A stretch of 64,000 nucleotides of DNA from Bryobacteraceae bacterium (GCA_031969915.1 DALYJJ010000002.1:12209-76208); one strand, 5' to 3'. Shown: positions 5,370-49,811, counted from the stretch's first letter. The notes: generated from the letters alone by a model not told the origin. A program made the numbers and translations.

Positions 5370-5430
5370 TTGTGTACCAACGGCTTAGCTGTGTGCAAGA
5401 GACGCGAGCCGGCAAACGGTATCCTCGGTC

Positions 5431-6884: not shown

Positions 6885-6887
6885 GCC

Positions 6888-7751
<864 letters not shown>

Positions 7752-17288: not shown

Positions 17289-17334
17289 GGCAGGGGAATT
17301 GTATCGCCCCGGGCCATTCGCTAGATTGGTGGTT

Positions 17335-17424: not shown

Positions 17425-17457
17425 CCCTCTTCTCTTCATACAATCGGTAGGACGCCT

Positions 17458-20217: not shown

Positions 20218-20311
20218 TGGCGGAAGCCAGTGGGGGTCGAACCCACCCGAGACGCAAGCGCCTCACACTGGTTTTGAAGACCAGGCCCGGCACCGGCCGG
20301 AATTGGCTTCC
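20218..20311 (-). tRNA. selC: tRNA-Sec(UCA), selenocysteine tRNA
   Basis: The reverse complement reads GGAAGCCAATTCCGGCCGGTGCCGGGCCTGGTCTTCAAAACCAGTGTGAGGCGCTTGCGTCTCGGGTGGGTTCGACCCCCACTGGCTTCCGCCA (94 nt). 8-bp acceptor GGAAGCCA/TGGCTTCC, 6-bp D-stem TCCGGC/GCCGGG with a 4-nt loop, anticodon loop CTTCAAA (UCA), long extra arm, 5-bp T-stem, discriminator G plus CCA. It closely parallels E. coli selC (GGAAG...CCGGUG...CUUCAAA...GGUUCGAC...CUUCCGCCA). Confidence 0.9.
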
Positions 20312-23543: not shown

Positions 23544-24584
23544 TTACACTTTTCGCAGTTTCGTTACCCGCCCGACTTCCACCCACTCCACCACGAAGAT
23601 GTTGCCCCTGTGATCGAACGAGGCTCCGTGCGGGCAAATGAACTTCCCGGGGATGAACTTGTCGCGAGGCTGTTTGCGAAGCTGCCCCCAGGTGTTCGAC
23701 CCATCCTCGCCAAGGTGCGCGATCAGCTTGTCTTCCCGGTCGAGCAGCGTCACCCGGGCCGCCAGGTCGGGAATCACGTAGACCCCCTTGCGCTCGGAAA
23801 AATGGCACGGCAGATTCACCACGCCTTCCGCGAAGCGTACGTGCTTTCCGTCGAGCGTGAAGTATTGCAGACGCTTGTTGGTGCGGTCCGCCACCAGTAA
23901 CAGCGGTTCCTTGCCGCGCGTGTCCACCGTCAGGCCATGCGGGCAATTCAACTGCCCCGCGTCCTTGCCCACGCCGCCGAACGTCCTCACCCACTCACCC
24001 TTCGCGTTGTACTGATTGATGTAGCTCGATCCGTATCCGTCGCCCACATAGATGTCCCCGTTCGGAGCCACGGCGAGATTGGTCGGGCTGTACTTCTTCG
24101 GCTTCCCGTCCGCGCCCGGCGCGTACTGCGGCGATTCCTTCGGATAGCCGAGCGTGAACATTTCCCTGCCGTCGAGCGTCGTCTTCACCACCAGGTTCCG
24201 CTTGGTGTCGCACAGGTAGAGGAATTCCTCGCGCCCTTCCTTGCGAATGTGCAGCCCGTGTGCACCGCCCTTGAAGTCCTTTCCCCAACTCTTGACGAAC
24301 TTGCCCTTTTCGTCGAAAACCACCATCGTGTCGTGGCTTTCGCTCACGTCGTTCACCGTGTGGTGCACGTAGATGTGGCCCTTGGAGTCTTCCACCACCC
24401 CATGCGTGTTGCCGTAGGCAATGGTTTTCGGCAACTCACCCCAATCGTGGATCACTTCATACGTGTGGTCGCCCGCGCCCACCACGGGGCGCTTCGTACC
24501 GCTCTTGTCGGTGGAGCCCAGAATGGCGGGCGCCGCCACGAACGGCATGGCCCGGAGAACATCTCGACGGCTTGCAATCCCCAT
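23544..24584 (-). CDS. NHL-repeat 6-bladed beta-propeller protein (peptidylglycine alpha-hydroxyglycine lyase-like), Tat-type leader
   Basis: The start at 24584 gives MGIASRRDVLRAMPFVAAPAILG (twin-Arg-like). NHL-type blades repeat: HGVVEDSKGHIYVHH, HGLHIRKEGREEFLYLCD, PTNLAVAPNGDIYVGDGYGS, PHGLTVDTRGKEPLLLVADR, PHGASFDHRGNIFVVEW. Confidence 0.7.
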   Translation of the reverse strand: MGIASRRDVLRAMPFVAAPAILGSTDKSGTKRPVVGAGDHTYEVIHDWGELPKTIAYGNTHGVVEDSKGHIYVHHTVNDVSESHDTMVVFDEKGKFVKSWGKDFKGGAHGLHIRKEGREEFLYLCDTKRNLVVKTTLDGREMFTLGYPKESPQYAPGADGKPKKYSPTNLAVAPNGDIYVGDGYGSSYINQYNAKGEWVRTFGGVGKDAGQLNCPHGLTVDTRGKEPLLLVADRTNKRLQYFTLDGKHVRFAEGVVNLPCHFSERKGVYVIPDLAARVTLLDREDKLIAHLGEDGSNTWGQLRKQPRDKFIPGKFICPHGASFDHRGNIFVVEWVEVGRVTKLRKV

Positions 24585-24659
24585 ATGTCTCGCCGTTATA
24601 GCACGCCGCTGCGCACTTTTCCAATTCGGCGGCGCGGCGATGATACAGTAGGCCAAGGT

Positions 24660-27236
24660 ATGCGCCGCTCCTGTTCAGCGCCGGCAGTGGTGTGCGCCTG
24701 GCTGGCGGGAGCGCTTCTCAGCCAGGGCCAAACGCTGATCCTCACCGACTTCGAGGGCCCTTGGCGGCCCGTTTCGAACAACCCTCGGGGCGCGGGCGAA
24801 CTCCCGCAGGGATGGTCGGATAACTCGAATTGGGCGAATCTGAGTGTTCGCCACGAACGGTTGCTGGACGAGGGCTCGTCCTACCTGCGCACTACCGTTT
24901 CGAGTCTTGAGACCGGGTGGGGCCAGTTGCAGCACAGCCTTCCGCGGGTGAGCGAGCAGGCCTACTACCGGCTGCGGGTTCGCGTGCGGTCGGAAGACCT
25001 GCTGGGCGCCACGTTCGGCATTCGCCGCGGTGGGGCGCCGTACAACTATCTCTGGCAGGTTCGCACCGCGCCGGGTCCGAACTGGCGCTACTTCACGTTC
25101 TACGCGCGGTTGTCGCCCGCCGACTATGACGTTGCCTTCTATGTCGCTCTGAGCGGCGCCGGCTCCTACGACCTCTCGGCGTTTCATTTGGAAAAGCTGA
25201 GCGAGCAGGAGTTGCTCGATGAGTTTTCGCGCAACGCTGCGGGTCTTCCGAAGAACCTGTTCCGCAACACACGCTTCCCGTTAGGGCTGCCGGCGGGTTG
25301 GATGCTCGACCGCGATTCGTCGGACACGGACGCCGTGACGCTCGATGTCGAAGACAAGGCGTTGCGCATTCAAGGAGCAAAGCGCTGGCAGATCACGACC
25401 GAACCCTTCGCGGTGCCCAAGCCACGGACTCCGTACACGGCCAGCTTTCGCGCCCGCGGAACGGCCTCCGGGCGGCTGCAGGTGATCAGCGACGGCGCCG
25501 TGCTGGCAACCCGGAACTATCAAGGAACTCCGGACGGTGAGAGGCTTTCCATCACGTTCAACAGCCCGGTCCTGGTGCGGGCGCAAGCGTTGCGCCTGGA
25601 GGGTACGGGCGAGCTTGTCGTCGAGGACTTTCAGCTAGAAGAAGGAACGAGCGCGACCGAGTTCTCGCCGCCCGCCTGCGAACTCCACCTTTCCACGGCG
25701 TCGCCGCTGCGCCTGGGCTTCGACGATGAACCGCTCTCGGTGACCTATTCGACGCTCGGCGGCGAGGTGTGCGCTTCCGTGCGGCTGAAGGCCGAGACGC
25801 TGGCGGGCGATTCGATCGACCTTCCTGTGGAGTCGAGCAGCGGAGAGGCGGACTTGCCGGCCGCCTATGGCGCCTATCGCGTGGAGGGCTGGGTGGAGAA
25901 CGCCTCCGGCGAGCGCGTGAGCCCGTACCAGGAGATTACCGTTTACCGCCTCCGGCGGCCTCGCTATTGGATGGAGGACGCGCCCGCCTCGCCCTTCGGC
26001 ATTCACACCAACTCCACCACGCGGCACATCCTGATGGCGAAAGCGATCGGCCTGAACTGGACGCGCCTGCACGATGCGGGCCTCCAGTACATCGGCTGGT
26101 ATCATCTCGAACGCAAGCCCGGCGAGTGGACCTTCTACGACGACGACATCCGGCGCTACCGCCAATACGGAATGAAGGTGCTGGGCCTTCTGTCCACCGC
26201 GCCCGAATGGGCGAGCCACTTCGACCGCCCGCGCAACGGCTACTTCGACCGGTTCTACCAGCCGCGTGACCTCGGCCAGTTCGCCAACTATGTGCGCACC
26301 GTCACCGAACGGTATCGCGACCTGATCGATACCTGGGATGTCTGGAACGAGCCGTGGAATGCAGGCTGGTGGGCCGTCCGCTACGACGACGACGCCAAGC
26401 GCTACGTGACCAGCGAGCAGCCGCATTCCGACTTCGCGCGGCTGCACCGCGTGGCGTGGGACACGGCGAAAAGCGTGGCCCCCTCGTTGACCATCCTGGG
26501 AATCAATTCCACCACCGGCAGCACCGGCTCCGATTGGACGCGCGGGGTGGTTGCAGCCGGGGGCCTCGACACCTCCGACGTGCTCTGCTACCACCAGTAC
26601 ACGACCGAGCCGCTCGGCTTTGCGCGCGACGCCGCCGAGCGCGGTTGGCGCGACGCCGTGGAGCCAGCCATGACCGGAGGCGGCCTCGACCGGCCCGCCT
26701 GGATGACCGAGGGCTCGCCCGTCTATGGCCTGAGCGGCCCCGGCTTCTACCGCCGGCTGCTGCCCTTCACGGACACCGAGAATTACTCCTTCACCGGCGA
26801 CCGCATCGTGCGCCACGTGGTCTCCCTTCTGGCGCAAGGCGTGGGCAAGGTCTTCCTGTACTCGATGCACTCTCACGAATCCATCGCCGGCCCGGAAAAC
26901 GTCTGGCGCGTGATCCTCGGAGAGGACGGATATCTGCACCCCAGCGCCGCCGCTCATTCGACGATGGCCTGGTTTCTCGAAGATACCCGGTTCGTTTCGC
27001 GAATCGAGCCCGCGCCGGGCCTCACCGCTTTCATCTTCGAAGGCAGCGGCCGGTCCGTGGCGGTGCTCGCCCCGAAGCAAGGCAGCGGAGCGGATTGGAC
27101 GCCGCCCGGCGACACTCCGCGTTTCGACCTGTATGGAAACTCCGTCCAGCCCGGCGCCGCCGCCGGCCGCTACGTGTCGTACCTCGAGCACCCGGGCGAT
27201 GCGCCGTCGCTCGTGGCTCTGCTCAAGCCGGAGTAA
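24660..27236 (+). CDS. secreted glycoside hydrolase, clan GH-A TIM-barrel-like catalytic domain with N-terminal beta-sandwich (CBM-like) domains
   Basis: The real start is the ATG at 24660 (MRRSCSAPAVVCAWLAGALLSQGQ); the upstream part of track ORF 23937..27236 is antisense to the NHL gene. The central region FGIHTNS...GLNWTRLHD...WYHLERKPGEWTF...GMKVLGLL...IDTWDVWNEPWN has the clan GH-A acid/base NEP motif. I cannot assign the exact GH family. Confidence 0.6.
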   Translation: MRRSCSAPAVVCAWLAGALLSQGQTLILTDFEGPWRPVSNNPRGAGELPQGWSDNSNWANLSVRHERLLDEGSSYLRTTVSSLETGWGQLQHSLPRVSEQAYYRLRVRVRSEDLLGATFGIRRGGAPYNYLWQVRTAPGPNWRYFTFYARLSPADYDVAFYVALSGAGSYDLSAFHLEKLSEQELLDEFSRNAAGLPKNLFRNTRFPLGLPAGWMLDRDSSDTDAVTLDVEDKALRIQGAKRWQITTEPFAVPKPRTPYTASFRARGTASGRLQVISDGAVLATRNYQGTPDGERLSITFNSPVLVRAQALRLEGTGELVVEDFQLEEGTSATEFSPPACELHLSTASPLRLGFDDEPLSVTYSTLGGEVCASVRLKAETLAGDSIDLPVESSSGEADLPAAYGAYRVEGWVENASGERVSPYQEITVYRLRRPRYWMEDAPASPFGIHTNSTTRHILMAKAIGLNWTRLHDAGLQYIGWYHLERKPGEWTFYDDDIRRYRQYGMKVLGLLSTAPEWASHFDRPRNGYFDRFYQPRDLGQFANYVRTVTERYRDLIDTWDVWNEPWNAGWWAVRYDDDAKRYVTSEQPHSDFARLHRVAWDTAKSVAPSLTILGINSTTGSTGSDWTRGVVAAGGLDTSDVLCYHQYTTEPLGFARDAAERGWRDAVEPAMTGGGLDRPAWMTEGSPVYGLSGPGFYRRLLPFTDTENYSFTGDRIVRHVVSLLAQGVGKVFLYSMHSHESIAGPENVWRVILGEDGYLHPSAAAHSTMAWFLEDTRFVSRIEPAPGLTAFIFEGSGRSVAVLAPKQGSGADWTPPGDTPRFDLYGNSVQPGAAAGRYVSYLEHPGDAPSLVALLKPE

Positions 27237-35605: not shown

Positions 35606-36118
35606 CTACCGGCCCTCGCTCGAAGGGGGCACGATGCCCTTGATGCGCATGTAGGTGGCCATGTTGCCGTAGTGCTCGTAGGTGTGGACCATGTTGAATC
35701 CGAGCACGCTGATCTTGGCCATTTCGCTCCCGAAGAACTTGATCCGCTCGAGGGCCTGGGCGTCGGTCATGCCCTCGTACACCGAGTCGCAGTACGCGTA
35801 GGCTTCCTTCAGACCGGCGACGAGATCCGCTTTGGTGGTCTTGCCTTTCTCAATGCCGCCCGCCTTCTTTTCCCCTTTGACCGCGGCGCAGAAGGCGATG
35901 TTGGCGTCAGCGACATGCCCAACCAACTGGCCAAACGTGCGCACGTCGTCGGAGGGCTTGAACGAGTAGTTCTCTTCAGGCATCTTCTCGGCGGCCTTCA
36001 GGACGTTACCGCGGAACCGCCCGTAGAGGGTCTTCGAGTCGGCGGTGAGCGGGTTCTGGGCGTTCGCCGCGCAGGCGGCCAGAACCAGGCCAAGCAGGGT
36101 GAGTGTTTTGAGTCGCAT
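35606..36118 (-). CDS. secreted DinB-family protein
   Basis: I chose the ATG at 36118 (MRLKTLTLLGLVLAACAANAQ); the track start at 36133 is a TTG. DinB-like pattern: N.LKAAEKMPEENYSFKP....RTFGQLVGHVAD ... VHTYEHYGNMATYMR. Confidence 0.7.
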   Translation of the reverse strand: MRLKTLTLLGLVLAACAANAQNPLTADSKTLYGRFRGNVLKAAEKMPEENYSFKPSDDVRTFGQLVGHVADANIAFCAAVKGEKKAGGIEKGKTTKADLVAGLKEAYAYCDSVYEGMTDAQALERIKFFGSEMAKISVLGFNMVHTYEHYGNMATYMRIKGIVPPSSEGR

Positions 36119-36173
36119 GAAGTGTTTATACAACGAACCGGATCGTTTCTTGCGTAAAATCGTGAGAACGACA

Positions 36174-38822
36174 ATGACTCACATCCGTTTGGGGGCGCTT
36201 TTCGTGGCCGCGGCGATGCTCGTTGCGGCGGAGAAATGGACGGTTGACGATGTGCTGTTCCAGGAGCGGTTGGCCGGTCTGGAGTGGTCGAAGGACGCGC
36301 GGTACGCGGTGTATGTGAAATCGAAGATGGACCGCGACAAGGGCGAGGCGGTCTCCAACCTCTGGCTGAAGAACGTAGCCGATGGCTTCGAGGTGGCGCT
36401 GACGCGAGGGAACGACAACCATGCGAGCCCGAAGTTCGCCCCGGATTCGAAACGCATTGCGTTTCTGAGCGGCCGGAAAGCGGCGGCGGTGCCCTCGGCC
36501 ACTGCCGGCAGTCCGGCGGCGGACGGCGGCGGCGGGATGCAGGTCTGGATGATCGACACGCGGGGCGGAGAGCCGTGGGCGGTCACGCGCCTGGAAAAGG
36601 GCGTTCGCGCGTTCGAGTGGCTGGACAACGATGCGCTCCTGCTGCTCGCCGCTGAAGACGCCACGCTGCACGAGCAGCAAACGAAGGAACGCAAGGACAC
36701 CTCAAACGTGGTTGACGACGAGGTGCACGCCGCGCCCGTGCGGCTCTATCGCTTCGACCTCAAGCAGCAGAAGGCCACCCGCCTGACCAATAATTCCGAC
36801 CGCATCACCAACATGACCGCATCGCCCGACGGGGCCTGGGCCGTCACCAGCCACAACCGCAGCCTGCGCGAGATCTACGACCAGAAGATCAAACCGGTGA
36901 CCTTTCTCTACAACCTGAAGACCGGGGAAGGGAAGCAGTTGTTCGCGGGCGAGAAACTGCAGCCGCGCGGCTTTGCCTGGAAGCCGGACAGCAAGGGGTT
37001 CTACTTCACGGCCCCGTACACCACACATCCGTATCTCTACAATGCGTCGATCAACCTGGCTTACGAGTACGACCTTGCCGCCGCCCGGCACTCGAAGATC
37101 GAACTCGATTGGGAGAACGGCCTGGCGTCGCCCCTGCGCGCCACGGCGGACGGTTTCGTCGCGCTGCTGGCGGCGGGAGCGCGCAACAAGGCCGCCCGGT
37201 ACACGCGCAACGGCGCGGCGTGGACCCGGACGCCGCTCGCCGGCGAACATGCCGGGAACCTCCACGGCCTGGAACTGAGCGACGACGGCAAGACCATCGC
37301 CTATCACTATTCGACCGCGTCGAGGCCCTCGGTGTGGATGATGGCGCGCCTTGACGGCGCCCAGCTCGCAGAGGCGAAACCGCTGGTGGAGTTGAACGGC
37401 GGCTTCAAGAAGAAGACGGTGGCGAAGACGGAACTCGTCTCGTGGAAGGGCGCGCTCGACGAACAGGTCGAGGGCATCCTCTACTACCCGCACCAATACG
37501 AAGCGGGCAGGAAGTACCCGTTGGTGGTGATGATCCACGGCGGGCCGCACGGCCACGACGCCGATGTGTTCAACGAATCGTGGGGCTACCCGCACCAGTT
37601 GATGGCGCAGCGAGGCGCGTTCGTGCTGAAGCCGAACTACCATGGATCCTCGAATTACGGGCTGAAGTGGAGCGAGTCCATTTCGAACGGCAAGTATAAC
37701 GACCTGGAGTGGATTGACGTCGAGAAGGGCGTGGACTCGTTGATCGCCCAGGGCCTGGTGGACGCCAACAAGCTCGGCGTGCTCGGCTGGTCGAACGGAT
37801 CGATCATCACCATCGAACTGACCACCCGCACCACGCGGTACAAGGCTGCCGGCGCGGGCGCCGGCGACGTCAACTGGATCAGCGATTGGGGGAATGCCGT
37901 CTTCGGCGACGCCTTCGAGATGTACTACCTGGGCAAAACGCCCATGCAGGATCCCGATCTCTACATCCGTAAGTCTCCGTTGTTCCGGATGGATAAGGTG
38001 CGTACGCCCACCATCATCTTCTTCGGCACCGAAGATAAGCAGGTGCCGACGGAACAAGGCTGGCAGCACTTTCGCGCCCTGCAGCACTACGGGAAGGCGG
38101 AGTCGAAGTTCATTCTCTTCCCCGGCGAGGCCCATGGTCCGCGCAAGCTCGTGCATCAGCGGCGGAAGCTGGAGGAGGAGCTGGCTTGGTTCGACAAGCA
38201 CCTGTTCGGGACGGCGAAGGACGTGAACGAGTCGCTGAAGCCATCTTCGCCGCTGGCCGCGGCGTTGAAGGTGCGCAACACGGGCGAGGTTCCGGACACC
38301 GCGGAACGCGGGCCCATCGCCATCGGCCGGTTCGAAGTGACACGCGCGCAGTACCGGGCGTTCGACGCCGCCTATTCGGTTGCCGCCGGAACCGAAAGCT
38401 ATCCGGCAAACGGCGTGACGTTCGAACGAGCCAAGGCCTACGCTGAGTGGCTTTCGAATAAGACCGGACAGAAATGGCGGCTGGGCAGCGAGGAGGAGTT
38501 GGGCTCGCTGCTGAAACCGGCGAAGGGCGAGAACACGCTCGATCTGTGGGCCGGTTACGCCGTGAACCCGGACGACGAAACGAAGCTCGCGTCCCTGGTT
38601 GAAGGCCTGGGCGCGGGCGCGCTGCTGAAGCCCGTGGGCAGTTTTCCGGGTAGCGGCGAGGATCCGCTCTTCGATCTCGGCGGCAACGTGGCGGAATGGG
38701 TTACCGCGAAGGACGGTACGGGGAAAGCGCTGGGCGGCAGCGCGGACCGGCCCTCGGATGCAAAATCGGAACGGCGAGCGCGGCCCGAATACATCGGATT
38801 CCGCGTGGTGAGGACACAGTAA
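36174..38822 (+). CDS. S9-family serine peptidase (prolyl oligopeptidase/acylaminoacyl-peptidase type) with a C-terminal FGE-sulfatase-fold domain
   Basis: The ATG at 36174 gives MTHIRLGALFVAAAMLVAAE. An N-terminal beta-propeller is followed by an alpha/beta hydrolase domain with GxSxG (LGVLGWSNGSII), Asp (FGTEDKQVP) and His (PGEAHG). The last ~172 aa (38304..38819) match the FGE/SUMF1 fold: RFEVTRAQYRAF, PANGVTFERAKAYAEWLS, WRLGSEEEL, LFDLGGNVAEWV, IGFRVVR. Confidence 0.8.
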   Translation: MTHIRLGALFVAAAMLVAAEKWTVDDVLFQERLAGLEWSKDARYAVYVKSKMDRDKGEAVSNLWLKNVADGFEVALTRGNDNHASPKFAPDSKRIAFLSGRKAAAVPSATAGSPAADGGGGMQVWMIDTRGGEPWAVTRLEKGVRAFEWLDNDALLLLAAEDATLHEQQTKERKDTSNVVDDEVHAAPVRLYRFDLKQQKATRLTNNSDRITNMTASPDGAWAVTSHNRSLREIYDQKIKPVTFLYNLKTGEGKQLFAGEKLQPRGFAWKPDSKGFYFTAPYTTHPYLYNASINLAYEYDLAAARHSKIELDWENGLASPLRATADGFVALLAAGARNKAARYTRNGAAWTRTPLAGEHAGNLHGLELSDDGKTIAYHYSTASRPSVWMMARLDGAQLAEAKPLVELNGGFKKKTVAKTELVSWKGALDEQVEGILYYPHQYEAGRKYPLVVMIHGGPHGHDADVFNESWGYPHQLMAQRGAFVLKPNYHGSSNYGLKWSESISNGKYNDLEWIDVEKGVDSLIAQGLVDANKLGVLGWSNGSIITIELTTRTTRYKAAGAGAGDVNWISDWGNAVFGDAFEMYYLGKTPMQDPDLYIRKSPLFRMDKVRTPTIIFFGTEDKQVPTEQGWQHFRALQHYGKAESKFILFPGEAHGPRKLVHQRRKLEEELAWFDKHLFGTAKDVNESLKPSSPLAAALKVRNTGEVPDTAERGPIAIGRFEVTRAQYRAFDAAYSVAAGTESYPANGVTFERAKAYAEWLSNKTGQKWRLGSEEELGSLLKPAKGENTLDLWAGYAVNPDDETKLASLVEGLGAGALLKPVGSFPGSGEDPLFDLGGNVAEWVTAKDGTGKALGGSADRPSDAKSERRARPEYIGFRVVRTQ

Positions 38823-39103
38823 TGCAAGTCCGTAGTTCCCAGATGGACCAGATGGGTGACGCGGAGCCCAACCGCTTAAACGTGCAGCCCTGCGAATCCA
38901 GCAAGCACTGGATCGAGTTCCAACTCGTGGACAAGCTGCATAACCCGATTCCGGGTGAACCGTACAAGGTGCGGCTGCCGGATGGTTCCTCCCACACCGG
39001 TACGCTCGACGGCGAGGGCAAGGTGCGCTTCGATCCCATCGTCGGCGGCCAAGCCACGATCAGCTTCCCGGGGCTCGACGCGAAAGAGTGGTTTTCGCTC
39101 TGA
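38822..39103 (+). CDS. small hypothetical protein with a beta-sandwich-like motif also seen in the neighbouring LysM and OmpA-like proteins
   Basis: The ATG at 38822 overlaps the S9-FGE stop (TAATG). 93 aa: ...HWIEFQLVDKLHNPIPGEPYKVRLPDGSSHTGTLDGEGKVRFDPIVGGQATISFPGLDAKEW. No signal peptide. The stop lies 12 nt from the stop of the convergent 773-aa gene. Confidence 0.5.
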   Translation: MQVRSSQMDQMGDAEPNRLNVQPCESSKHWIEFQLVDKLHNPIPGEPYKVRLPDGSSHTGTLDGEGKVRFDPIVGGQATISFPGLDAKEWFSL

Positions 39104-39115
39104 CGGCGCCCGTGA

Positions 39116-41437
39116 TCAAGACGGGATCTGGTTCCGGACCTGGATCAACATATCGAAAATGTAGTCGTCCGGCGCGGCCGTGTCCTCCACCAGGATGAAC
39201 TCCTCGCCGACAGCACGGGCGAACAATGCCTTCTGCCTGCGTGACGCGGTTTCCGGTTGCAGGTCCTTCATCGTGATCGGATTCGATACTTCAAGGATCA
39301 CGTCGGGTTTGGTGAAATCGGGATCGACAATGCCCAGCGGTGTGTTCTCGATGCCCAGGGCGAGCAGGTCGTTGCCCTTGTTGCCCACCAGCGTCTTCAG
39401 CGCGTACTGAAACACCAGATCGCGGCGCACCGTGCCCGTGGCGGTGACGAGTTCGTTCCACGTCACGGGCCGGTCGTTGCGCGTGAGCTGGCGCTTGGAG
39501 ACGGGTGCGAGCATCATGTCGCCGACGTTGTTGAACTCTACTCCGCTGGAGGAGAAAAACAGAAAGTCTTCCGGCCCCAGAAATACTTCGAACGTGGGCG
39601 GGTTCTTGATTGCCTGTGCGCCCTTGTCCATCTTGTCGAAGTAGCGCGAATTCCAGTGGCCGTTCACGCCCACGCGCATGAGCCACTCTTCGGTCTCCAC
39701 GCCTCCGGCGATGATCTTGCCGAGTTCCGTGAAGAACCCGTCGATGGCGGCGTCGACTGCTTTCTGGACCATGTCCTTCAGCATGCCGCCCAGGTCGATG
39801 GTGGGTCCGTTGGGGGGGATCTTCACGATCGGGATGTCGTTCAGCGACATACCCAGGATCTTGATGTTCGCCACGCGCTCGGCGATCTCCTTGCGCATGG
39901 CCTCCTCTTCCTTCTTGAAGAGATCGCGCACCTGCTTCACGCTGTTGTCCCGGATGCGGATCCGCCCCGTGATGCCGCTGAAGGCCACCTCGCAGATCTT
40001 CACCTTCTTCGCCTGCGTGTGATTCGGGTCGTGCCAGCCCAGGGAGAGCATCACGCCCGCGGCGTCCTTGCCGTCGAGGGACGCCTTGGTGATGGTGATC
40101 TTGGCCTGCTTCGGCGCCTCACCGGGCTTCTCGGGCGGCAGCAATTGCACCACCGGTTTGATCAAGTGCGCTCCCGCATGGGGCAGCGCCACCGTGGCCT
40201 GCAGCAGGCGCGGCCTCAGCACGATGGTGTTATGGAAAAACTCGGTGGTGGCGCCGATAGGAAACGGCGCGACCGGAACTTCAAGCGGCGGCAGATCGAC
40301 AATGAACTCGTAGTCCTTTTCTGCGAGCGAAGAGTAGTTCATGTACCCGCCGCGCTTCGACGCGAAGAACATGAACGTGATAGCCGGGACCTTGGTGGGC
40401 CCGGCCTTCGGGTCGCCCGGCAGATTCTCCCCGAACTGTACCGCTCCCCATGTGGCTGTCGCGATGGCGCGGGGTGGGTTCATCATCGCCATCGTCTTCG
40501 GATTCCTGGCGGCTTTCAGTTCCTTGGTCTTGCTGCAGTCGTACACCCAGCGTCCAGACGCCCACACGAACATCCCGGTCATGGGCCACAGCCATTCGCC
40601 ATCCGCCCACGGCCCATCGTGCTTGGGCATCTCTTCGGCTTTGAAGCCGCGTTCAAAGGGGTCGTCGAAGTCCTCCATCAGAGAGCCCGCATCCCACTGG
40701 ATCTCGAACGTTCCCGGCTTGGCGATCGGCCGCTCGCTGTCCAGTTTCTCGTCTGTGTTGGGTGGGTTTCCGGCGCTGGGCGCGATGGCGCTCGCGTATT
40801 TCGTTTCGGGCAGCACGTGGAGCGACCAGTTCATCCACTTGTGCCATTGCGCAAAGGGAACCTCAACCGGATTGCCGTAGCTGCGGGTGGCCGTTCCTTC
40901 GATCTCGATGATCTGATCGATGGGAATCGTTCCGGACGACGGGCCGCGATTCACCGGAGCCCATTGCGGGATGACGCGGAGAGCGCGCATGGCCAGGCGC
41001 GCGCCGATACGCACGATGAAGAACTTGAGGACATCGGTGATGATGCCCAGGACGGTGTCGAGAAACGAACTGATCGCGGCCAGAGCGGTCGCGAACCCAA
41101 GGATCGCTCCGATCACGGTCCCGATCGGCCCGCCCAGAGACCCCTGCGCCGCGGCCAGAGCAGCGGCCGCGGCCGCGGCAGCAGCGCGGGCGGCGTTGGC
41201 CGCGGTGCGTGCGATCAGGGTCACCGTTTCCAACACCTTCAGCAGCGGACCGAGCACCGGCAGGTTGTCCTCGATGAACTCCTTGAACTGCTGCTCCATG
41301 TCGCCGAACTCTTCCGGCGTGTGGCAGCCGCAGGAGACGCCGTCGCCGTCCGGCCCCGGCTTCTGAGGCACGAAGCCCTCGTTGTTGATCCGTTGAAACG
41401 GCTTTAGGCGGTTCAGAGGCTTGATGGGGTCGGCCAT
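39116..41437 (-). CDS. 773-aa protein of no recognisable family; N-terminal Ala-run and glycine-zipper hydrophobic segment; third gene of the LysM/OmpA-like operon
   Basis: Uninterrupted ORF with an ATG at 41437, 6 nt after the upstream stop. aa 78-97 AANAARAAAAAAAAALAAAQ; aa 102-150 GGPIGTVIGAILGFATALAAISSFLDTVLGIITDVLKFFIVRIGARLAM. Trp-rich stretches follow (QWHKWMNWSLHV, GPWADGEWLWPMTGMFVWASGRWVYDC). No signal peptide and no catalytic motif that I can name. Confidence 0.75.
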   Translation of the reverse strand: MADPIKPLNRLKPFQRINNEGFVPQKPGPDGDGVSCGCHTPEEFGDMEQQFKEFIEDNLPVLGPLLKVLETVTLIARTAANAARAAAAAAAAALAAAQGSLGGPIGTVIGAILGFATALAAISSFLDTVLGIITDVLKFFIVRIGARLAMRALRVIPQWAPVNRGPSSGTIPIDQIIEIEGTATRSYGNPVEVPFAQWHKWMNWSLHVLPETKYASAIAPSAGNPPNTDEKLDSERPIAKPGTFEIQWDAGSLMEDFDDPFERGFKAEEMPKHDGPWADGEWLWPMTGMFVWASGRWVYDCSKTKELKAARNPKTMAMMNPPRAIATATWGAVQFGENLPGDPKAGPTKVPAITFMFFASKRGGYMNYSSLAEKDYEFIVDLPPLEVPVAPFPIGATTEFFHNTIVLRPRLLQATVALPHAGAHLIKPVVQLLPPEKPGEAPKQAKITITKASLDGKDAAGVMLSLGWHDPNHTQAKKVKICEVAFSGITGRIRIRDNSVKQVRDLFKKEEEAMRKEIAERVANIKILGMSLNDIPIVKIPPNGPTIDLGGMLKDMVQKAVDAAIDGFFTELGKIIAGGVETEEWLMRVGVNGHWNSRYFDKMDKGAQAIKNPPTFEVFLGPEDFLFFSSSGVEFNNVGDMMLAPVSKRQLTRNDRPVTWNELVTATGTVRRDLVFQYALKTLVGNKGNDLLALGIENTPLGIVDPDFTKPDVILEVSNPITMKDLQPETASRRQKALFARAVGEEFILVEDTAAPDDYIFDMLIQVRNQIPS

Positions 41438-41443
41438 GGCGGA

Positions 41444-43138
41444 TCAGGGTTGCTCGGGCGCCGGTTCCTCACTGGGTGGCGGCGTGGCGCCCTTGATTTC
41501 GTGTTCGTCAAAGATGGCCGCGCGCACCGTGTTGTCGTCTTCGTTATCCAGGTTGTTGCGGTGGCGGAATTGCGTGAAGGCCTCGTCGAATTCCTCCTGG
41601 GTCCACTTCTCGGGAGCCTTCTCGCCGAAGCCCAGGTTGTAGAGCCGCTGCTTCACGGCCAGGTCATCGCCCACGTCGCGCGCCCGCAACGCACCGGCGT
41701 CGACCACAAGCGGCCAGAACGTCTCCTCACCCGCGAACTTGTCGGTGTCTCCGCCCGGGTCCGGCCCCTCGGGCGCGGGCATGTCCAGTCCCGTGGCGTC
41801 GATCCGGATGGTCATCTTCGTGCGCTCGTCGATCACGGGGATCCGCAACTCGCCCTTCGCGTCGGTGGTGCCGCGGATCAACGGCGCGAACTCCGCCTCT
41901 CCCGCCTTCACCACGTACCGCCGGTTCGCCAGCGGGATCTTCTTACCGCCCTGCCCGTCGATGCGCAACCGGACCACCCACTCGCGCAGCTTGCGCTCGC
42001 ACGGGGAGTGCTGGGCGAAACCGTGATAGAAGCGGCACGCCATCGTGTTGCCGGTCTCTTCCACCGGAACCGGAGTCACCGTGTTCGTCTCGTCCACCGC
42101 CAGGATGGTCATCCGGTCGCCGAACGTGCGGTCTTCCGGCCCTTCCGTGCGGCGCTTGTCCCCATCGGACCAGAACCGCTTCACGCACAGCGAGCCGTCC
42201 TGCTTCGCCGTCGGGCACGGCCATTTCTTCGGATCGATCCGCGTGCCATGTTTGAACACGAAAACCAGCGCGCGCCGGTCGACGACGTACAACTCATTGC
42301 GGACCTCGCGCAACACGGGGTCCTTCTTGGCCGCGTCGGTCTTGCTTTTTGAGAACAGAAAGATCGGATTGAACTCCCCGCACCCCTGCACGTCGCCTTT
42401 CAGCCCGTCTCCCTTGCCGCGAGCGATGAAGTCATCCGGAGTGAGCTCGAAGTTGTTGCCGTCCGGGTCCTTGCAGATGGCGTCCATGTACTCGCGGAAC
42501 AACTGCAGGCGCATCTTCTTGTCGAGCGTGAATCCTTTGCCGAAGCCTCGAGATTCGCGCCAGGCGGAGATCGCGTCGCGCGTCGCCTTTTGCGTTTGCG
42601 CGGTGAGCCCGCCGTCAATCGGACCCGTGTAGAACGGCCCCGCGTCGTCCTCCAACGTCTGGGAGAGTATCGTCTGGAACGACTTGGTGCCCCATTGGTC
42701 GCCGCCGAAGCCCGGAGAAAACAGCTCGTCCCAGATCTCGGCCTTGCGAATCAGCAGCCCGTACAGTGCCAGGGCGCGCCGTCCGCTGAGCGTCTTGTTG
42801 TAGTTGTCGTCGCCGGTAGGGTCGGCGTGCGCGAAGACGGAGCATGGCGGGAACGCCTTCGACTCATGCGAGTCGCGCAGCTTGATCATCAGTCTCGCAA
42901 AGCGCGTGAAGGCGTCGGCAGACTCCGGACTGATGAACGACGAATCGAACGCGAAGCCGGTATTCGGAAGCCGCATGCAGCCGATGGCGATCAGCTTCTC
43001 CCGGATGGCATTGAAGTTCTTGCCGGTCTGCTCGGCGGGGATCGGGGCCACCAGCACAGGCAGTTCGGCCCGCTGCGGATGGGTCGCCACGATCCCGTTC
43101 GGCGCGACATCGAGAATGAATACCGGTTCGCCAGCCAT
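41444..43138 (-). CDS. OmpA_C-like peptidoglycan-associating protein with inserted and C-terminal PG_binding_1-like modules
   Basis: The OmpA_C-like core is split. The first half is FAFDSSFISPESADAFTRFARLM...VFAHADPTGDDNYNKTLSGRRALALYGLL. The second half is GCGEFNP...VDRRALVFVF. An insert (FYTGPIDGGLTAQTQKATRDAISAWRESRGF) and the C-terminus (LAVKQRLYNLGFGEKAPEKWTQEEFDEAFTQFRHRNNL) resemble PG_binding_1. A beta-sandwich-like unit is also present (VVRLRIDGQGGKKIPLANRRYVVKAGE...GTTDAKGELRIPV). No signal peptide (MAGEPVFILDVAPNG). Confidence 0.7.
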   Translation of the reverse strand: MAGEPVFILDVAPNGIVATHPQRAELPVLVAPIPAEQTGKNFNAIREKLIAIGCMRLPNTGFAFDSSFISPESADAFTRFARLMIKLRDSHESKAFPPCSVFAHADPTGDDNYNKTLSGRRALALYGLLIRKAEIWDELFSPGFGGDQWGTKSFQTILSQTLEDDAGPFYTGPIDGGLTAQTQKATRDAISAWRESRGFGKGFTLDKKMRLQLFREYMDAICKDPDGNNFELTPDDFIARGKGDGLKGDVQGCGEFNPIFLFSKSKTDAAKKDPVLREVRNELYVVDRRALVFVFKHGTRIDPKKWPCPTAKQDGSLCVKRFWSDGDKRRTEGPEDRTFGDRMTILAVDETNTVTPVPVEETGNTMACRFYHGFAQHSPCERKLREWVVRLRIDGQGGKKIPLANRRYVVKAGEAEFAPLIRGTTDAKGELRIPVIDERTKMTIRIDATGLDMPAPEGPDPGGDTDKFAGEETFWPLVVDAGALRARDVGDDLAVKQRLYNLGFGEKAPEKWTQEEFDEAFTQFRHRNNLDNEDDNTVRAAIFDEHEIKGATPPPSEEPAPEQP

Positions 43139-43144
43139 GCGTAC

Positions 43145-43873
43145 TCACATGCCGTGGACGGCGAGCAGCTTCTTCACGATCTTGTCTTCCTGCACGCCTG
43201 TCTTGCCGGCGGTGTCGTTGGTGGCGGGGTCCTCTTCTCCGTCCGGGGGCGCGGCGACGATGGCCGGCCGCTTCGCGGGCTTGGCGATGTGATCGCACTC
43301 GAACTCCTCGGCCGCCCAGAGCAGTTGATCCAGGTCCTTCACGCTGTAGCCGGCAAAGTAGCCCAGGTTGTTGAGCCGCGCCTGCTGCCCGGAGATCTTG
43401 GTCTCCGGATTCAGGCTCCCGATCCGCAGATCATATTTCACGTCGTGAGGCTCCGGCTTCTCCGGATGCGCGATCAATTCGCCCTGCTTCACCACCCGGC
43501 CCATGCGCTTTTCCACAATCCCTTCCGTGTCGGTCGGGTCTGCGGCTTCCGCCGGCTTGCCGCTCTCCAGCGCGATGTCGCACGCCGTTTCGCTCATCTT
43601 GTTACCGTCGACGTCGATCAACTTGCACCGCAGAAACAGGGGCGGAACATCGGCTTGAAACACATGCGTCTGGTCGGTGGCCCGGCGCTCCTGTTTGTCC
43701 TCCCGGTCCGGAATGAAGATCTGATCGCCAGGAAACAGAACGTGGGGGTCGCGAAGCGCCTTGACGGCGGCGTTCTCAGGGTGGTCCCAGAGGACGTGGA
43801 AATCGCCGAAGCCCTCCTGGGCGGCGATGGCGGAAAGATGCTCCCCCTGCTGGACGATATGAGTCTTCGGCAT
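43145..43873 (-). CDS. LysM-domain protein with a PG_binding_1-like C-terminal module
   Basis: N-terminal LysM: THIVQQGEHLSAIAAQEGFGDFHVLWDHPENAAVKALRDPHVLFPGDQIFIP. Middle beta-sandwich-like unit: LFLRCKLIDVDGNKMSETACDIALESGK...TDTEGIV. C-terminal ISGQQARLNNLGYFAGYSVKDLDQLLWAAEEFECDH. No signal peptide. The stop lies 6 nt before the next start. Confidence 0.75.
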   Translation of the reverse strand: MPKTHIVQQGEHLSAIAAQEGFGDFHVLWDHPENAAVKALRDPHVLFPGDQIFIPDREDKQERRATDQTHVFQADVPPLFLRCKLIDVDGNKMSETACDIALESGKPAEAADPTDTEGIVEKRMGRVVKQGELIAHPEKPEPHDVKYDLRIGSLNPETKISGQQARLNNLGYFAGYSVKDLDQLLWAAEEFECDHIAKPAKRPAIVAAPPDGEEDPATNDTAGKTGVQEDKIVKKLLAVHGM

Positions 43874-43983
43874 GGCCCGAGCCAGTATGGTAGCCGAAAA
43901 CGGCGCCGGTTGGAACCGATTCCGCTATTTCTACCGTTATTGGTTACGCGGTTTGCTCGGAGAAGGCAGCTCACCGAGAGCCC

Positions 43984-44041
43984 AGAAAAAAACAGCCCGT
44001 GGGCCGCTCAACCGGCGCTTGTCGGCCGGCGGCCCACGGGC
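43984..44041 (-). terminator. rho-independent terminator of the TonB-dependent receptor gene
   Basis: On the minus strand, GCCCGTGGGCCGC (44041..44029) pairs with GCGGCCCACGGGC (44007..43995): a 13-bp perfect stem around a 21-nt loop. It is followed directly by TGTTTTTTTCT (plus-strand A-run 43986..43992). It lies 40 nt after the receptor stop at 44081. Confidence 0.85.
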
Positions 44042-44080
44042 AGAGTTCTTCCAGGACGTACAGCGCGTTCGCGCTGGCGC

Positions 44081-47000
44081 TTAGAAATTCAGCTTCAGCG
44101 CAAGCTGAATCAGCCGAGGATCGAAGGTGGACGTCACGCGACCGAAGTTGGCGGAAGTGAGGTCCACCACCGGGGCGCCGAAGTTGGTGCGGTTGAAGAA
44201 ATTGAAGAACTCGGCACGGAACGCCAGGCGCGAGGTCTCATTGATGAACGGTAGGGCGAACGACTTCGACATCGTGAAGTCCACCTGGTAGAGCGGGAAG
44301 CCGTAGACGACGTTGCGGCCGAGGTTGCCGAACGGAGCGATGGCGGCGGGGATGGCCAGGTTCGCCCGGTTGAAGTAGTTGGTGAAGGTGCGCGAGGCGT
44401 CCGGAGCCTTCGCTCCCTGGGACCCGTCGATCAGGTTGGGCCGCAGCGCCACGTTGCCCAGAAAGTCGGGTTGCCCGTCGCTCAGGCGCCCGTCGAAATC
44501 GGGGTAGCGGATGTTGAGGGGCTGGCCCCCGGTGAGCGTGATGATCGAGGAAGCCTCCCAGCCGCCCAGGAATGCGTCCACCGCGCCGGGCATGCCGCTT
44601 CCGAAGCGCTTGCCCTTGCCGAAGGGCAGCGAATAGGTGACGCTCGTCGTGTTGTTGAAGCGCTGGTCGAAGCTGGAGGGGCCGCGGTCATTGGCGACAT
44701 TGCGGATGTCCTGCGGGTTCGGCGATCCGCCGTTGGTGGTCTCCAGAACCTGTCCACCGTTGTCGATGGCCTTCGAGTAGGTGAAGGCGTTCAACAGCAG
44801 CAGGTCGCGGCCGCGGCGCTCGAACTTCACCTGGAGGGCGTTGTAGTTGGAGAAGCCGCCGGTCACCACCGCTGTGATGTTGCCGAAGCCCTGGTAGGGG
44901 CGGCGCGCCTGCAGCGTGCCCAGTGTGGTGAGGCCTCGCGAGACTTCCTCCTGGGTGATGGGGCGGGCCTGGTTGAAGTCGCCGAGCAGCGGCAGGTCCG
45001 TGCCGCGGTTGCCGACGTAGGCGACATCCAGCAGCGTGTCCTTGGTCAGGCTGTACTGCATGGTGAAGTGCCAGTTGTGAATCTGGCCCCACGGCAGGTC
45101 CGTCGGCGTGTAGAGAATCACGTTCGAGGGGGGGTTCACCGGGTATCCCATCTCACGCGTCCGGAAGCAGCCGTCGAAATTGTTCCCGGCGCAGGGAGTG
45201 TTCAGTAGCGCCGCTGAGTTCTGCCGCGAGAAGCGCGTGACGAACGGCGCGTTGGTGCCCAGGATCTCCGCCGACGCCATCCGGTTCCAGTAGTTGTAGC
45301 CGAGCCCGTAGCCGCCGCGAAGCACCAGTCTCTTGTTGAGCTGATAGGCCGCACCCACGCGCGGCGAGAACAGGCCATAGCGGATCTCCCGCTGGGCACG
45401 CTCCTCGATCGAGCCGTTGGTGGCCTGCACCAGGCGGTTGGTAGCCGGATCGAAGTTGGCCTGCCGGCCCTCGGCTTCGTAGAACGGCGTCGTCAATTCA
45501 TAGCGCAGACCCAGGTTGAGCGTCAGCTTGTCGGTCGCCTTCCAGTCATCCTGCAGGTAGAACCAGTGACCCTGCTGCCGAATCGGCACTGCCACCTGTG
45601 TCGCGAGCTGGTAGGAGCTGCGCGCGCCGAAATAGAAATCGGCGATGTTGTAGAAGTAGTTGTTCGCCGTGCCGCCGGTGGGCCGGCTGAACGTGCCGCC
45701 AAAGCCGTCGATGCCGTAGAGCGGGTTGGTGTCGTCGACAAGGATTCGCATGTACAGCCACTCATAGCCCATCTTCAGGTTGTGGCGGCCCGCGATCTTA
45801 CTCAGGTTCAGGCGCGAGTTGATGGTGGTGGGGAACTGCGCCTGCGGGTTCGTGGATTGGCGGCCGATACGGAAGCCGAGCCCGGTGATGTCCTGCGGCG
45901 TGATGCCGCCCCGCACGCGCTCACCCGTGGGAAGGCCCGTGATGCCGAACAGGTCCTGCATGCTGGGCGTGCCCACCAGGGCAGGAAGACGGTCCATTCC
46001 CAGGCGCGTAACGGCGAAGCGGTACTCCAGAACTTCGGTGGCGGATTTGGTCCAGGTAGCGCCAGCCGTGCCGTTCTGGTTGAAGACGTTCAGGTTGCCG
46101 ATCGAGTTGCCGCCCGAAAAGCCGGTGACAACGCCTGGCTGGAAGATATCCTGCCGCCGCTGCGTGTAGCGGAAGAAGGTGGCGACGCTCGGCTTCAACT
46201 GGTGATCGATCTTGACGGCTCCCTTGTCTTCGTTCAGTTGATTGCGGGCGTAGCCGGAATAGTTGTTCGCGATGCCGAGCGCGCCGCCGCCCGGGGAGTT
46301 CGGTTGCGGCAGTTCGTTCAGCACGCGGCGGGCGAAGCGCGTCATCGGAATCGGCTGCCCGGCGGGGATCACCGTGCCGGCGGCGATGGAGCGGCCCTGG
46401 TCATCCGTAAACGCGATGGGCACGCGGACATCGGTGGGCAGCACGCCGCGGCGATGGTCGAGCGACGGCAGATTCACGAACTGGAAGGGCGACTGGATCC
46501 ACCGCGACCCTTCGTAGTCGGCAAAGAAAAAGGTGCGGTCCTTGACGAGGGGGCCGCCGAAGGTGCCGCCGAACTGGTTGCGGTTTACCTGCGGCTTGGG
46601 GAGCACCTGGTTATTCACGGTGGGCTTGAAGAAACCGTAGGCGTTCAGACGCGTGTTCTGCAGGAAGTTCCAGAGCGAGCCGTGGAATTCGTTGCCGCCG
46701 GAACGGGAACTGACGTTCATCACCGCGCCGCCCGACCGCCCGTACTCCGCCGAGTAGGCGTTCACCACCATGCGGAACTCGGCCACCGAATCCGGCGACG
46801 GTTGGATCGCCTGGTTCGAGAAGCCCTGGTTCGTGGTGCCGTAGAAGTTGTTGTCGACGCCGTCCAGAAGGAAGTTGTTGAATACGCTCCGCAGCCCGTT
46901 GACGTTGTAAGAGCCTTCGCGGCGGAACGCGATGTCGCCCTGGTTGCCCACCTGCGATTGCCGTACGCCGGGAACCAGAAGCGCCAGGTTCGAATAGGAG

Positions 47001-49134: not shown

Positions 49135-49488
49135 GTGGCGGAAGCCCGCAAAACGCGGACTGTCTCATGGATGAAAGCCGCGCTGCATGACTTCGGGAAG
49201 TTCCCGGAAGGTGCAAGGACGATTTGCCTCACTGCGCTGACGATCGCGGCCGAGGGCGGCAAGGCCGATATCGCGAAGCCCTTGCACGGTCTGGGGTCGG
49301 GCGTGATGGAGATTGCACTGCCGTTTAGGGGCGACGCTTTCCGCGTCGTCTATGCCCTGCAGATTGGCGAAGACATCTGGGTGCTGCATGCTTTTCAGAA
49401 GAAATCGACGAAAAGCATTATGACGCCCAAACACGAGATGAACCTCATAAAGGACCGTCTGAAGAGACTGAAGGAGATGCTGAAATGA
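49135..49488 (+). CDS. type II toxin, RelE/ParE superfamily, Gp49-like (HigB-type)
   Basis: ...TVSWMKAALHDFGKFPEGAR......L..A.EGGKADIAKPLHGLGSGVMEIALPFRGDAFRVVYALQIGEDIWVLHAFQKKSTKSIMTPKHEMNLIKDRLKRLKE matches the Gp49/DUF891 toxin pattern. I kept the GTG start at 49135 because family members begin before the conserved Trp. An alternative ATG lies at 49171. Confidence 0.8.
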   Translation: MAEARKTRTVSWMKAALHDFGKFPEGARTICLTALTIAAEGGKADIAKPLHGLGSGVMEIALPFRGDAFRVVYALQIGEDIWVLHAFQKKSTKSIMTPKHEMNLIKDRLKRLKEMLK

Positions 49489-49811
49489 AACGCGAGGCAA
49501 AACTCGGTGTGGTGCGCGGTAGCGGCAACGTCTTCCGCGACGTTGGAGCGAAGAACGCAGACGCGGAGCAATTCAAGGCCATCCTCGCCGCCGAAATCAT
49601 CAAGGTGCTCGACCGCGAGAAACTGACCGTACGCGCGGCGCATGCAAGGACCGGCTTTGCCGCTGCCGACTTCTCCCGCATCCGCAACGCGGACCTCGGC
49701 CGATTCACCGTCGATCGGTTGATGGCGATCATCAACCGGCTTGGCTCGCGCGTCGAGGTGAGAATTCGCGTGCGTCGCGCCGAAGACGTCATGCATGAGG
49801 TGACGGCGTGA
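49485..49811 (+). CDS. XRE-family HTH antitoxin (HigA-type)
   Basis: The ATG overlaps the toxin stop (ATGA). 108 aa: VVRGSGNVFRDVG..NADAEQFKA.LAAEIIKVLDREKLTVRAAHARTGFAAADFSRIRNADLGRFTVDRLMAIINRLG is the usual partner of Gp49-like toxins. Toxin-first order matches HigBA. Confidence 0.8.
   Translation: MKREAKLGVVRGSGNVFRDVGAKNADAEQFKAILAAEIIKVLDREKLTVRAAHARTGFAAADFSRIRNADLGRFTVDRLMAIINRLGSRVEVRIRVRRAEDVMHEVTA

Follow-up and report, generated by a model that had tools for sequence, protein, structure and literature searches.

A conserved four-gene module in a Bryobacteraceae genome is a probable orphan type VI secretion cargo island

What is the function of three closely packed genes when two of them encode peptidoglycan (PG)-binding proteins and the third, the largest, encodes a protein of no recognisable family? 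The question is raised by genes A, B and C of a Bryobacteraceae bacterium, which lie on the minus strand of a 64,000-nucleotide stretch of DNA (GCA_031969915.1, DALYJJ010000002.1:12209-76208; hereafter the window, with positions counted from its first letter; Table 1). An earlier analysis made from the sequence alone (the sequence-only reading) had recognised these open reading frames (ORFs), and we found all three at the same positions and on the same strand, with the 6-nt spacers that it had described (TGA-gtacgc-ATG for A/B and TGA-tccgcc-ATG for B/C). It had regarded them as a self-contained, cell-wall-directed module, for example a pore or toxin whose partners bind the wall. Our results lead to an answer close to the toxin-or-pore part of that proposal but not to self-containment, because a fourth gene, D, exists and the D domain is a C-terminal adaptor of VgrG in relatives. 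We consider it probable that D-A-B-C is an orphan (auxiliary) island of cargo for a type VI secretion system (T6SS), in which C is an effector that belongs to a new family and targets membranes.

The fourth gene is the convergent plus-strand ORF that ends at 39103, 12 nt from the C stop codon at 39116. The sequence-only reading had placed its end correctly and took it for a mere boundary, missing that it is a conserved member of the set. D has only a 25-residue N-terminal tail beside its domain, with no RIX domain, and its Pfam matches were weak (CarboxypepD_reg and SpaA). It is predicted to be transthyretin-like (TTR-like), tied to that fold only by these weak matches and by hhalign, which aligned it with a domain of that type in B (92%, E 5e-7). 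D also matched the middle domain of A (93%, E 3e-7), and the C-terminus of A matched that of B (97%, E 1e-10). Thus, by profile–profile comparison, the four proteins are built from a small common set of domains.

The connection with T6SS came from the neighbourhoods of related modules, which we analysed in 38 non-redundant loci from at least nine phyla, all of them from uncultured bacteria (metagenome-assembled genomes, MAGs, or metagenome contigs). In two of these, one from Terriglobia (L024) and the other from Methylomirabilis (L030), we observed complete VgrG proteins whose final 70 residues are the D domain. The D-domain hidden Markov model (HMM) recognised it there with independent E-values of 5.5e-33 and 2.7e-31, and the VgrG proteins contained Phage_GPD (2e-92 and 1e-99), Phage_base_V and Gp5_trimer_C. 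The D-fused VgrG lies directly upstream of C-A-B in L024 and of A-B-C in L030. In Polyangiales/Polyangiaceae loci (L037, L039 and L040), VgrG ends instead in a PG_binding_1-like domain of the A/B type and stands directly upstream of C.

T6SS core genes, counted as VgrG, ClpV, TssF, TssG, sheath-protein and PAAR genes, were present within 10 kb in ten of the 38 loci. Three further loci had accessory T6SS-linked genes only, namely DUF2169 (L005), DUF4123 (L007) and, in L020, pentapeptide-repeat proteins that clustered with the DUF2169 protein of L003. About a third of the related loci lie in or beside T6SS gene sets, and the label 'orphan' that the sequence-only reading gave to the operon does not hold. 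The neighbouring genes were TssF-TssG-ClpV-VgrG in L024 (Pfam-confirmed), ClpV-VgrG-PAAR followed by A-B-C in L025 and L026 (PAAR after VgrG Pfam-confirmed in L025), ClpV, VgrG and a sheath gene with a VipA/VipB domain in L030 (sheath Pfam-confirmed), and ClpV, TssF and TssG in L038. The ClpV genes of L025, L026, L030 and L038 and the TssF/TssG genes of L025 and L038 were assigned by clustering with Pfam-confirmed genes. In L014, VgrG is followed by D-A pairs. In a Burkholderiaceae locus (L003) the module lies inside a full cluster with TagH-FHA, PP2C (PppA), ClpV, VgrG, DUF2169 and PAAR-toxin genes; between the TagH-FHA gene and A, at 3126..7326, this locus also encodes a pair of OmpA-domain proteins and one protein of Peptidase_C14 (caspase-like)/MORN type. 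On this evidence an association of the module with T6SS is very probable.

The four genes were observed to be conserved together. ORF and HMM maps showed A-B-C adjacent in most of the 38 loci and D nearby in most; C-A-B and C with a divergent B-A were alternative orders. For A, B, C and D, matrices of pairwise identity were correlated (Spearman 0.50-0.83, Mantel p 0.001), which indicates that the four travel as a unit, and identity did not follow phylum, suggesting horizontal spread. A word-indexed search returned 71 homologs of C, all unnamed or called 'hypothetical protein' only, and a C profile search of 1.84 billion representatives gave 401 matches at E<=1e-3. The search of one genome per species found 34 loci, all in MAGs, from Acidobacteriota, Planctomycetota, Burkholderiales, Verrucomicrobiota (Haloferula), Gemmatimonadota, Myxococcota, Rokubacteria, Methylomirabilis, Eisenbacteria and Armatimonadota. 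It was common for one genome or locus to hold several diverged sets (33-48% identity), and the 5.9-Mb contig CAVRGO010000004.1 carries two copies of the module. Extra A-B or D-A pairs were followed by mutually unrelated proteins with no Pfam match, as a platform that loads polymorphic cargo would lead one to expect. In the Acidobacteriota MAG that also carries L012, a second module copy (L016, 5944..8645) has its C in three ORFs of 207, 471 and 220 amino acids, and is either a decaying paralog or the product of an assembly frameshift. Within the literature searched, we found no publication describing this module or the C family, only precedents for the roles of its domains.

Homologs of D of ~94 amino acids adjoin A-B-C in most loci, in more than one orientation. 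In L001, L008 and L014 it shares the strand of the trio and lies upstream; in L003 it is downstream, again on the same strand, and forms the C-terminal part of a 194-amino-acid protein. The tail-to-tail arrangement of the window recurs in L007, L009, L015, L017, L018, L022, L023 and L045, and in nine tail-to-tail loci the gap between D and the operon end is -4 to +25 nt (12 nt in the window). Such a gap is too short for a terminator, so the transcripts of D and the operon must overlap, and the recurrence of this convergent arrangement is a hint of control by antisense transcription or transcriptional interference. A lone D homolog was found among housekeeping genes on a separate contig (L043, 10001..10288) of the MAG that carries L010, an A-B-C locus without D; thus D can be encoded far from its partners. 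The word-indexed protein database gave 14 close homologs of D, all stand-alone, a result that is uninformative on the frequency of VgrG fusions. In the window, the D ATG shares 1 nt with the TAA of the preceding gene (TAATG) and has a GAGGA box 7 nt before it, and the NCBI annotation of the identical MAG protein begins at an internal Met (38843). That preceding gene (36045..38824) encodes a 925-amino-acid PD40/S9 prolyl-oligopeptidase fused to a C-terminal FGE-sulfatase (SUMF1-like) domain; it precedes D in L009 too and is not conserved with the module elsewhere.

The sequence-only reading had called LysM, OmpA_C-like and PG_binding_1-like domains in A and B, and these calls proved right in kind. 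In A, the LysM match was below threshold (Pfam PF01476, 15.1 bits against a gathering threshold of 20.9; NCBIfam LysM, E 0.016); the N-terminal 55 residues form a conserved LysM-like block in 24 homologs, and the A N-terminus is LysM-like but divergent. B is the most conserved protein of the set, and its AlphaFold2 model had a predicted local distance difference test (pLDDT) score of 84.6. Its OmpA-like domain is split, as had been proposed: the insert parts residues 51-131 (beta-alpha-beta-alpha) from the closing strands at 250-295, which carry an RRxxVxV motif at residues 288-295. The window protein scored 19.5 bits for PF00691, below the cut-off of 27.2, with a weak NCBIfam match; many B homologs carry PF00691, the B family profile matched OprF in the PDB at 2.9e-11, and Foldseek paired the domain with PorE, OprF, PA0833 and YfiB (prob 0.92-0.96). 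The PG-binding residues H104, D106, Y113, N114, L117 and R121 are invariant in 51 B sequences, and so are several Cys residues. Thus both the OmpA_C fold, as modelled, and the conserved Asp/Arg PG-binding motif are present, and B is predicted to bind PG. A Cys-rich segment (residues 300-385) lies between the OmpA-like and TTR-like parts, and B has seven conserved Cys residues. The beta-sandwich of B resembled transthyretin in Foldseek (prob 0.96-0.98, E 0.03-0.1, TM(target) 0.39-0.46), and its PG_binding_2 match just passed the Pfam cut-off (21.3 bits against 21.1), with many homologs carrying PF01471. An enzymatic domain in B was considered and rejected, as the PDB profile search and Foldseek gave only OmpA-like, TTR-like and PG-binding parts.

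C matched nothing in Pfam, NCBIfam, PADLOC or PDB sequences, and its AlphaFold2 model (pLDDT 87; predicted template-modelling score, pTM, 0.87) had no Foldseek match at E<=1e-3 in the PDB or BFVD. Neither of the outcomes that the sequence-only reading had named as refuting it came about: the trio is strongly conserved together, and the 773-amino-acid protein is still without a known family. The N-terminal segment contains the invariant residues K6, F14, G33, G37 and C38, and a sub-HMM of its motif matched 38 C ORFs in the loci, in both the long and the short clade of C and including proteins that lack the hairpin; nearly every member of the family carries the motif. This segment (residues 1-58) is a candidate docking site for a TTR-like domain. 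It is followed, in the long clade only, to which the window belongs, by a hydrophobic hairpin of two helices (residues 59-100 and 106-155), whose tip is an uncharged Ala/Gly-rich stretch of 42 residues with a glycine zipper (G103/G107/G111/G115/A119). The best 19-residue hydropathy was 2.14, at residue 108, and reached at least 1.6 in 44 of 50 homologs; the longest uncharged stretch had a median of 26 amino acids among the homologs and was at least 30 in about half. The hairpin is predicted to insert into a membrane. As it is missing from the short-C clade, it is not the conserved core function of C.

Resemblance of C to lipid-binding C2 beta-sandwiches (dysferlin, otoferlin, PLC-delta and cPLA2 C2) was weak and non-significant in Foldseek (best E 0.012, prob up to 0.87), and we rejected the idea of a C2 protein. 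A phage origin of C was likewise rejected, as PHROG tape-measure matches covered only residues 47-141, the Ala/Gly-rich hairpin, and are compositional.

If A, B and D are T6SS cargo, how might they leave the cell? A hydropathy scan, a heuristic rather than a dedicated signal predictor, detected no signal-like N-terminus or transmembrane segment in 24 sequences of A, 51 of B and one of D, whereas two proteins of the window used as controls, the TonB-dependent receptor and the S9 peptidase, scored 2.2-2.6. The full mechanism that we envisage, from loading and injection to PG hold and membrane attack, has in our estimation slightly less than an even chance of being right; secretion, complex formation, toxicity and target are all inferred. 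D would be a detached copy of the TTR adaptor domain that is borne elsewhere at the VgrG C-terminus. A and B would be made in the cytoplasm without export signals and, together with D, would assemble with C on the VgrG spike via beta-sandwich and edge-strand contacts, and the assembled set would be shot into an adjacent cell. Once in the periplasm of the prey, the OmpA-type site of B, with the LysM and PG_binding modules, could hold the complex on PG, while the glycine-zipper hairpin of C may enter the membrane and either depolarise it or carry the C core across.

Several observations weigh against a T6SS cargo island with C as its effector. In agreement with the sequence-only reading, we found no T6SS, phage or integrase gene in the window, using Pfam on ~35 ORFs, which span the greater part of the 64 kb, together with, for T6SS, a local six-frame comparison with the flank proteins of T6SS-linked loci. 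In the long-C clade only L003 and L014 have such genes within 10 kb, and the direct VgrG fusions (L024, L030, L037, L039 and L040) sit with C proteins that lack a match to the long-clade hairpin. C has no detectable similarity to known toxins, its C2-like resemblance being non-significant; no homology with pore-forming or membrane toxins (colicin-type, VasX, Tme or Tse5) was found in Pfam, NCBIfam, the PDB or Foldseek, and its likeness to them lies in the physico-chemistry of the hairpin only. An antibacterial T6SS toxin usually comes with an immunity gene, and its lack here is unusual: in the loci of the long-C clade we found no extra conserved gene at all, and no candidate immunity gene among the conserved ones. 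In the short-C clade, a ~430-amino-acid HEAT-repeat protein follows in seven loci (L025, at 11596-12897, L029, L036, L038, L039, L040 and L041), and a 110-amino-acid protein and a GDT1/UPF0016 cation-transporter-like membrane protein follow C in three to four (L024, at 12203-12793, L025, L026 and L041). These neighbours may be immunity or accessory genes; the clade to which the window belongs does not have them.

The lack of an immunity gene, together with the intact OmpA motif of B and the fact that every domain recognised in A and B serves binding and none is an enzyme, would also suit a non-toxic accessory or structural set of the T6SS. Its task might be to let the spike or membrane complex engage PG, as TagL, TagN or TagP do, or to assist the spike in gripping or crossing the wall of the prey, and the position of the L003 module among T6SS regulatory and OmpA genes fits such a role. 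A PG anchor on the producer's side, however, requires the signal peptide or transmembrane segment that A and B do not have. The diverged paralogous sets per genome or locus lie downstream of VgrG/PAAR, many copies are orphan islands distant from T6SS genes, and the extra A-B pairs precede unrelated third genes, a combination that fits cargo and not core accessories. We therefore regard an accessory set as unlikely. We give a similarly low chance to a bolder variant of the cargo island, in which a multi-protein cargo is injected preassembled and builds an ectopic PG-to-membrane staple or pore without a dedicated immunity protein or, in genomes lacking a T6SS, is released by another route.

The sequence-only reading had offered an envelope module independent of secretion, namely a lysis-released weapon or a stress or abortive-infection device. 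The PG-binding modules would serve it well, and the lack of T6SS genes in the window and in most long-clade loci, which are likewise orphan, speaks for it. Yet no export signal would bring the PG-binding domains to the producer's own periplasm, and VgrG fusions in five loci with T6SS core genes in ten are far above chance adjacency. Nor did the abortive-infection and envelope-stress guesses find support: the sole PADLOC hit was to ZorB/MotB, at E 0.046 and on B's OmpA-like part, which is not meaningful, and a defence system was rejected; the PHROG matches were compositional only. An envelope module thus seems rather improbable. So does an anti-eukaryotic or anti-fungal T6SS cargo, with LysM acting on chitin and a C2-like sandwich on eukaryotic membranes: it would account for the lack of an immunity gene, and bacteria that carry the module live in soil and water, where they meet protists and fungi, but the invariant OmpA-type Asp/Arg motif and the PG_binding_1 domains indicate bacterial PG, and the weak C2-like Foldseek resemblance is not significant. 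An extracellular contractile injection system or phage tail was rejected, as the contractile-system neighbours in relatives are T6SS genes (ClpV, TssF, TssG and sheath) and BFVD gave no match.

Table 1. Positions in the window of the four genes, their domains and nearby elements
Feature	Coordinates	Strand	Basis or description
Gene A	43873..43145	-	ORF, 242 aa
Gene B	43138..41444	-	ORF, 564 aa
Gene C	41437..39116	-	ORF, 773 aa
Gene D	38822..39103	+	93-aa stand-alone predicted transthyretin-like (TTR) domain protein
A LysM-like domain, residues 1-56	43706..43873	-	alignment of 24 homologs
A TTR-like beta-sandwich, residues ~70-150	43424..43666	-	hhalign with D
A PG_binding_1-like domain, residues ~152-242	43148..43420	-	hhalign with B
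B OmpA_C-like domain, residues ~50-300	42239..42991	-	split by ~115-aa helical insert
B TTR-like beta-sandwich, residues ~383-447	41798..41992	-	Foldseek, hhalign with D
B PG_binding_1/2-type helical domain, residues ~475-548	41495..41716	-	Pfam
C N-terminal motif MADPxKPLxRxxPFxRINN...GCH, residues 1-58	41264..41437	-	sub-HMM
C helical hairpin, residues 59-156	40970..41263	-	DSSP of model
C beta-rich conserved core and C-terminal domain, residues 157-773	39119..40969	-	model
Intrinsic terminator of upstream TonB-dependent receptor gene	43984..44041	-	hairpin and U7
TTCCAA-N17-TACCAT pair	43887..43915	-	present, indistinguishable from chance

How is the operon bounded and expressed? Upstream, a long GC hairpin followed by U7 closes the gene of a TonB-dependent receptor (OMP_b-brl_4, CarboxypepD_reg and Plug in Pfam) and marks the 5' boundary of A-B-C; the strong terminator proposed there was borne out by folding (dG -44.6 kcal/mol, z -4.4, with none of 200 shuffles as good). 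The sigma70-like -35/-10 pair that had been suggested just before the A ATG does exist at its position, but it agrees with the consensus at only 7 of 12 positions and its status as a promoter did not hold. A consensus scan of 38500..44300 returned no promoter-like site, with 0.8 expected by chance, and the pair is absent from the closest ortholog locus, L009, from a Bryobacteraceae MAG, whose C is 89% identical. There the upstream region is unrelated and much shorter, with ~25 nt from the terminator T-run to the A ATG. No structured RNA of an Rfam family was found in 38000..44500.

The codon composition of the module did not set it apart from its surroundings as had been suggested. A/T-ending codons, said to be enriched, made up 15.5% in the module compared with 17.3% in 13 flanking genes, and the GC content of third codon positions was 0.83-0.86 in both. 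As GC content and both third-position measures equal those of the flanks, a foreign-DNA signal was rejected. The amino acid bias was for the most part confirmed: relative to the same 13 genes the module is richer in Lys (6.3 compared with 2.9%), Ile (5.8 compared with 3.8%), Phe (5.2 compared with 4.4%) and Asp (7.3 compared with 5.3%), whereas Asn, also claimed to be raised, is lower (3.5 compared with 4.4%). A Solibacterales MAG has deposited proteins identical to D and, over a partial sequence, to B, so the window is of acidobacterial origin.

The other genes of the window encode hydrolases, transporters, sulfatases, a toxin–antitoxin pair and similar products. The pair, at 49135..49811, consists of a Gp49-like (HigB-type) toxin gene that overlaps an HTH_37 (HigA-type) antitoxin gene; GC content falls to 0.58-0.59 around it, over 48.5-51 kb, and it is probably a small mobile insertion. 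Two tRNA genes are present, tRNA-Ser(TGA) at 17335..17424 and tRNA-Sec(TCA) at 20218..20311, and the first lies within the 5' part of a lactonase ORF (17185..18570), so the true start of that ORF must be further downstream. A 1099-amino-acid ORF (23937..27236, plus strand) with a gene-like third-position GC content and no Pfam match overlaps an NHL-repeat gene (23544..24656, minus strand); probably one of the two calls, or the start of the long ORF, is wrong. At 165..1852, 37 kb away from the module, lie two adjoining HEAT-repeat genes that probably have no relation to the HEAT-repeat partners of the short-C clade.

What would a T6SS cargo island of this kind mean? To our knowledge, T6SS effector repertoires are known almost solely from cultured Proteobacteria and Bacteroidota, and the present module is a widespread and wholly unannotated putative cargo set, with ~400 representative clusters in the C family. 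If our interpretation is true, a new effector fold is added, TTR, LysM and PG_binding_1 loading modules operate well beyond the taxa in which they were first described, and the D domain with the A/B pair becomes a sequence marker for orphan T6SS cargo in metagenomes. Two oddities stand out as concrete, the missing immunity gene and an OmpA-type PG-binding site that is intact in a protein without a signal.

The sequence-only reading had been unable to match the module to any characterised system. LysM, PG_binding_1 and TTR are, however, documented loading modules (PMC10673891, PMC10435454 and PMC11796386). In vgrG loci, LysM and PG_binding_1 domains occur as stand-alone proteins, at the VgrG C-terminus or at the toxin N-terminus (Wang et al. 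2023, PMC10673891); a stand-alone LysM protein was non-toxic and required for toxin–VgrG binding, and the gene order in Ketobacter alkanivorans is VgrG, LysM protein, toxin Kalk_10455 and immunity (PMC10673891). As in those systems, A and B carry LysM and PG_binding_1 domains, and VgrG carries a PG_binding_1-like domain in L037, L039 and L040. Unlike the Ketobacter locus, the present module has two co-conserved multi-domain partners, A with three domains and B with four including the OmpA-like one, and in the window it has neither a following immunity gene nor a nearby vgrG. The comparison with the Kalk_10455 locus covered domains and gene layout. Furthermore, PG_binding_1 was described in that study from gammaproteobacteria only (PMC10673891), whereas the present loci come from at least nine other phyla.

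A stand-alone RIX-TTR protein is a secreted adaptor, studied with Rte1/Rti1, and can be exchanged for a TTR domain fused to VgrG or PAAR (Kanarek et al. 2023, PMC10435454). TTR docks the N-terminus of the cargo or effector by completing a beta structure, and binding of Tle1 by a VgrG C-terminal TTR is a precedent for such an adaptor (PMC10435454). D resembles these adaptors in alternating between stand-alone and VgrG-fused forms. It differs from RIX-TTR in lacking RIX and in being usually convergent to the operon, and TTR-like domains are also found inside A and B. In Acinetobacter baumannii Tae17–VgrG17, an N-terminal Ig-like beta-sandwich with LysM binds the VgrG TTR edge-to-edge (PMC11796386). 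A likewise has a LysM-like domain and a beta-sandwich; unlike Tae17, which has its own lytic transglycosylase and amidase, it has no enzymatic domain and is separate from the putative effector.

Pore-forming, membrane-targeting T6SS effectors include VasX, Tme and those of Tse5 type. Among T6SS effectors, Tde1 has an N-terminal glycine zipper that is required for membrane translocation (Ali et al., PMC10240207). C is like these effectors, with their hydrophobic or glycine-zipper helices, in that its helical hairpin is long and uncharged and bears a GxxxG ladder; it has no sequence or fold similarity to any of Tde1, VasX, Tme or Tse5. B, for its part, has the OmpA_C fold and invariant Asp/Arg motif of the OmpA, Pal and TagL anchors; unlike them it has no signal peptide, lipobox or transmembrane segment, and its domain is split by the insert and followed by Cys-rich, TTR-like and PG_binding_1 domains. 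The module brings together the parts known from all four of the studies cited above (PMC10673891, PMC10435454, PMC11796386 and PMC10240207). What is new here is the putative effector family without a conserved immunity gene, its large co-conserved partners, the signal-less OmpA-type domain and the free, convergent D.

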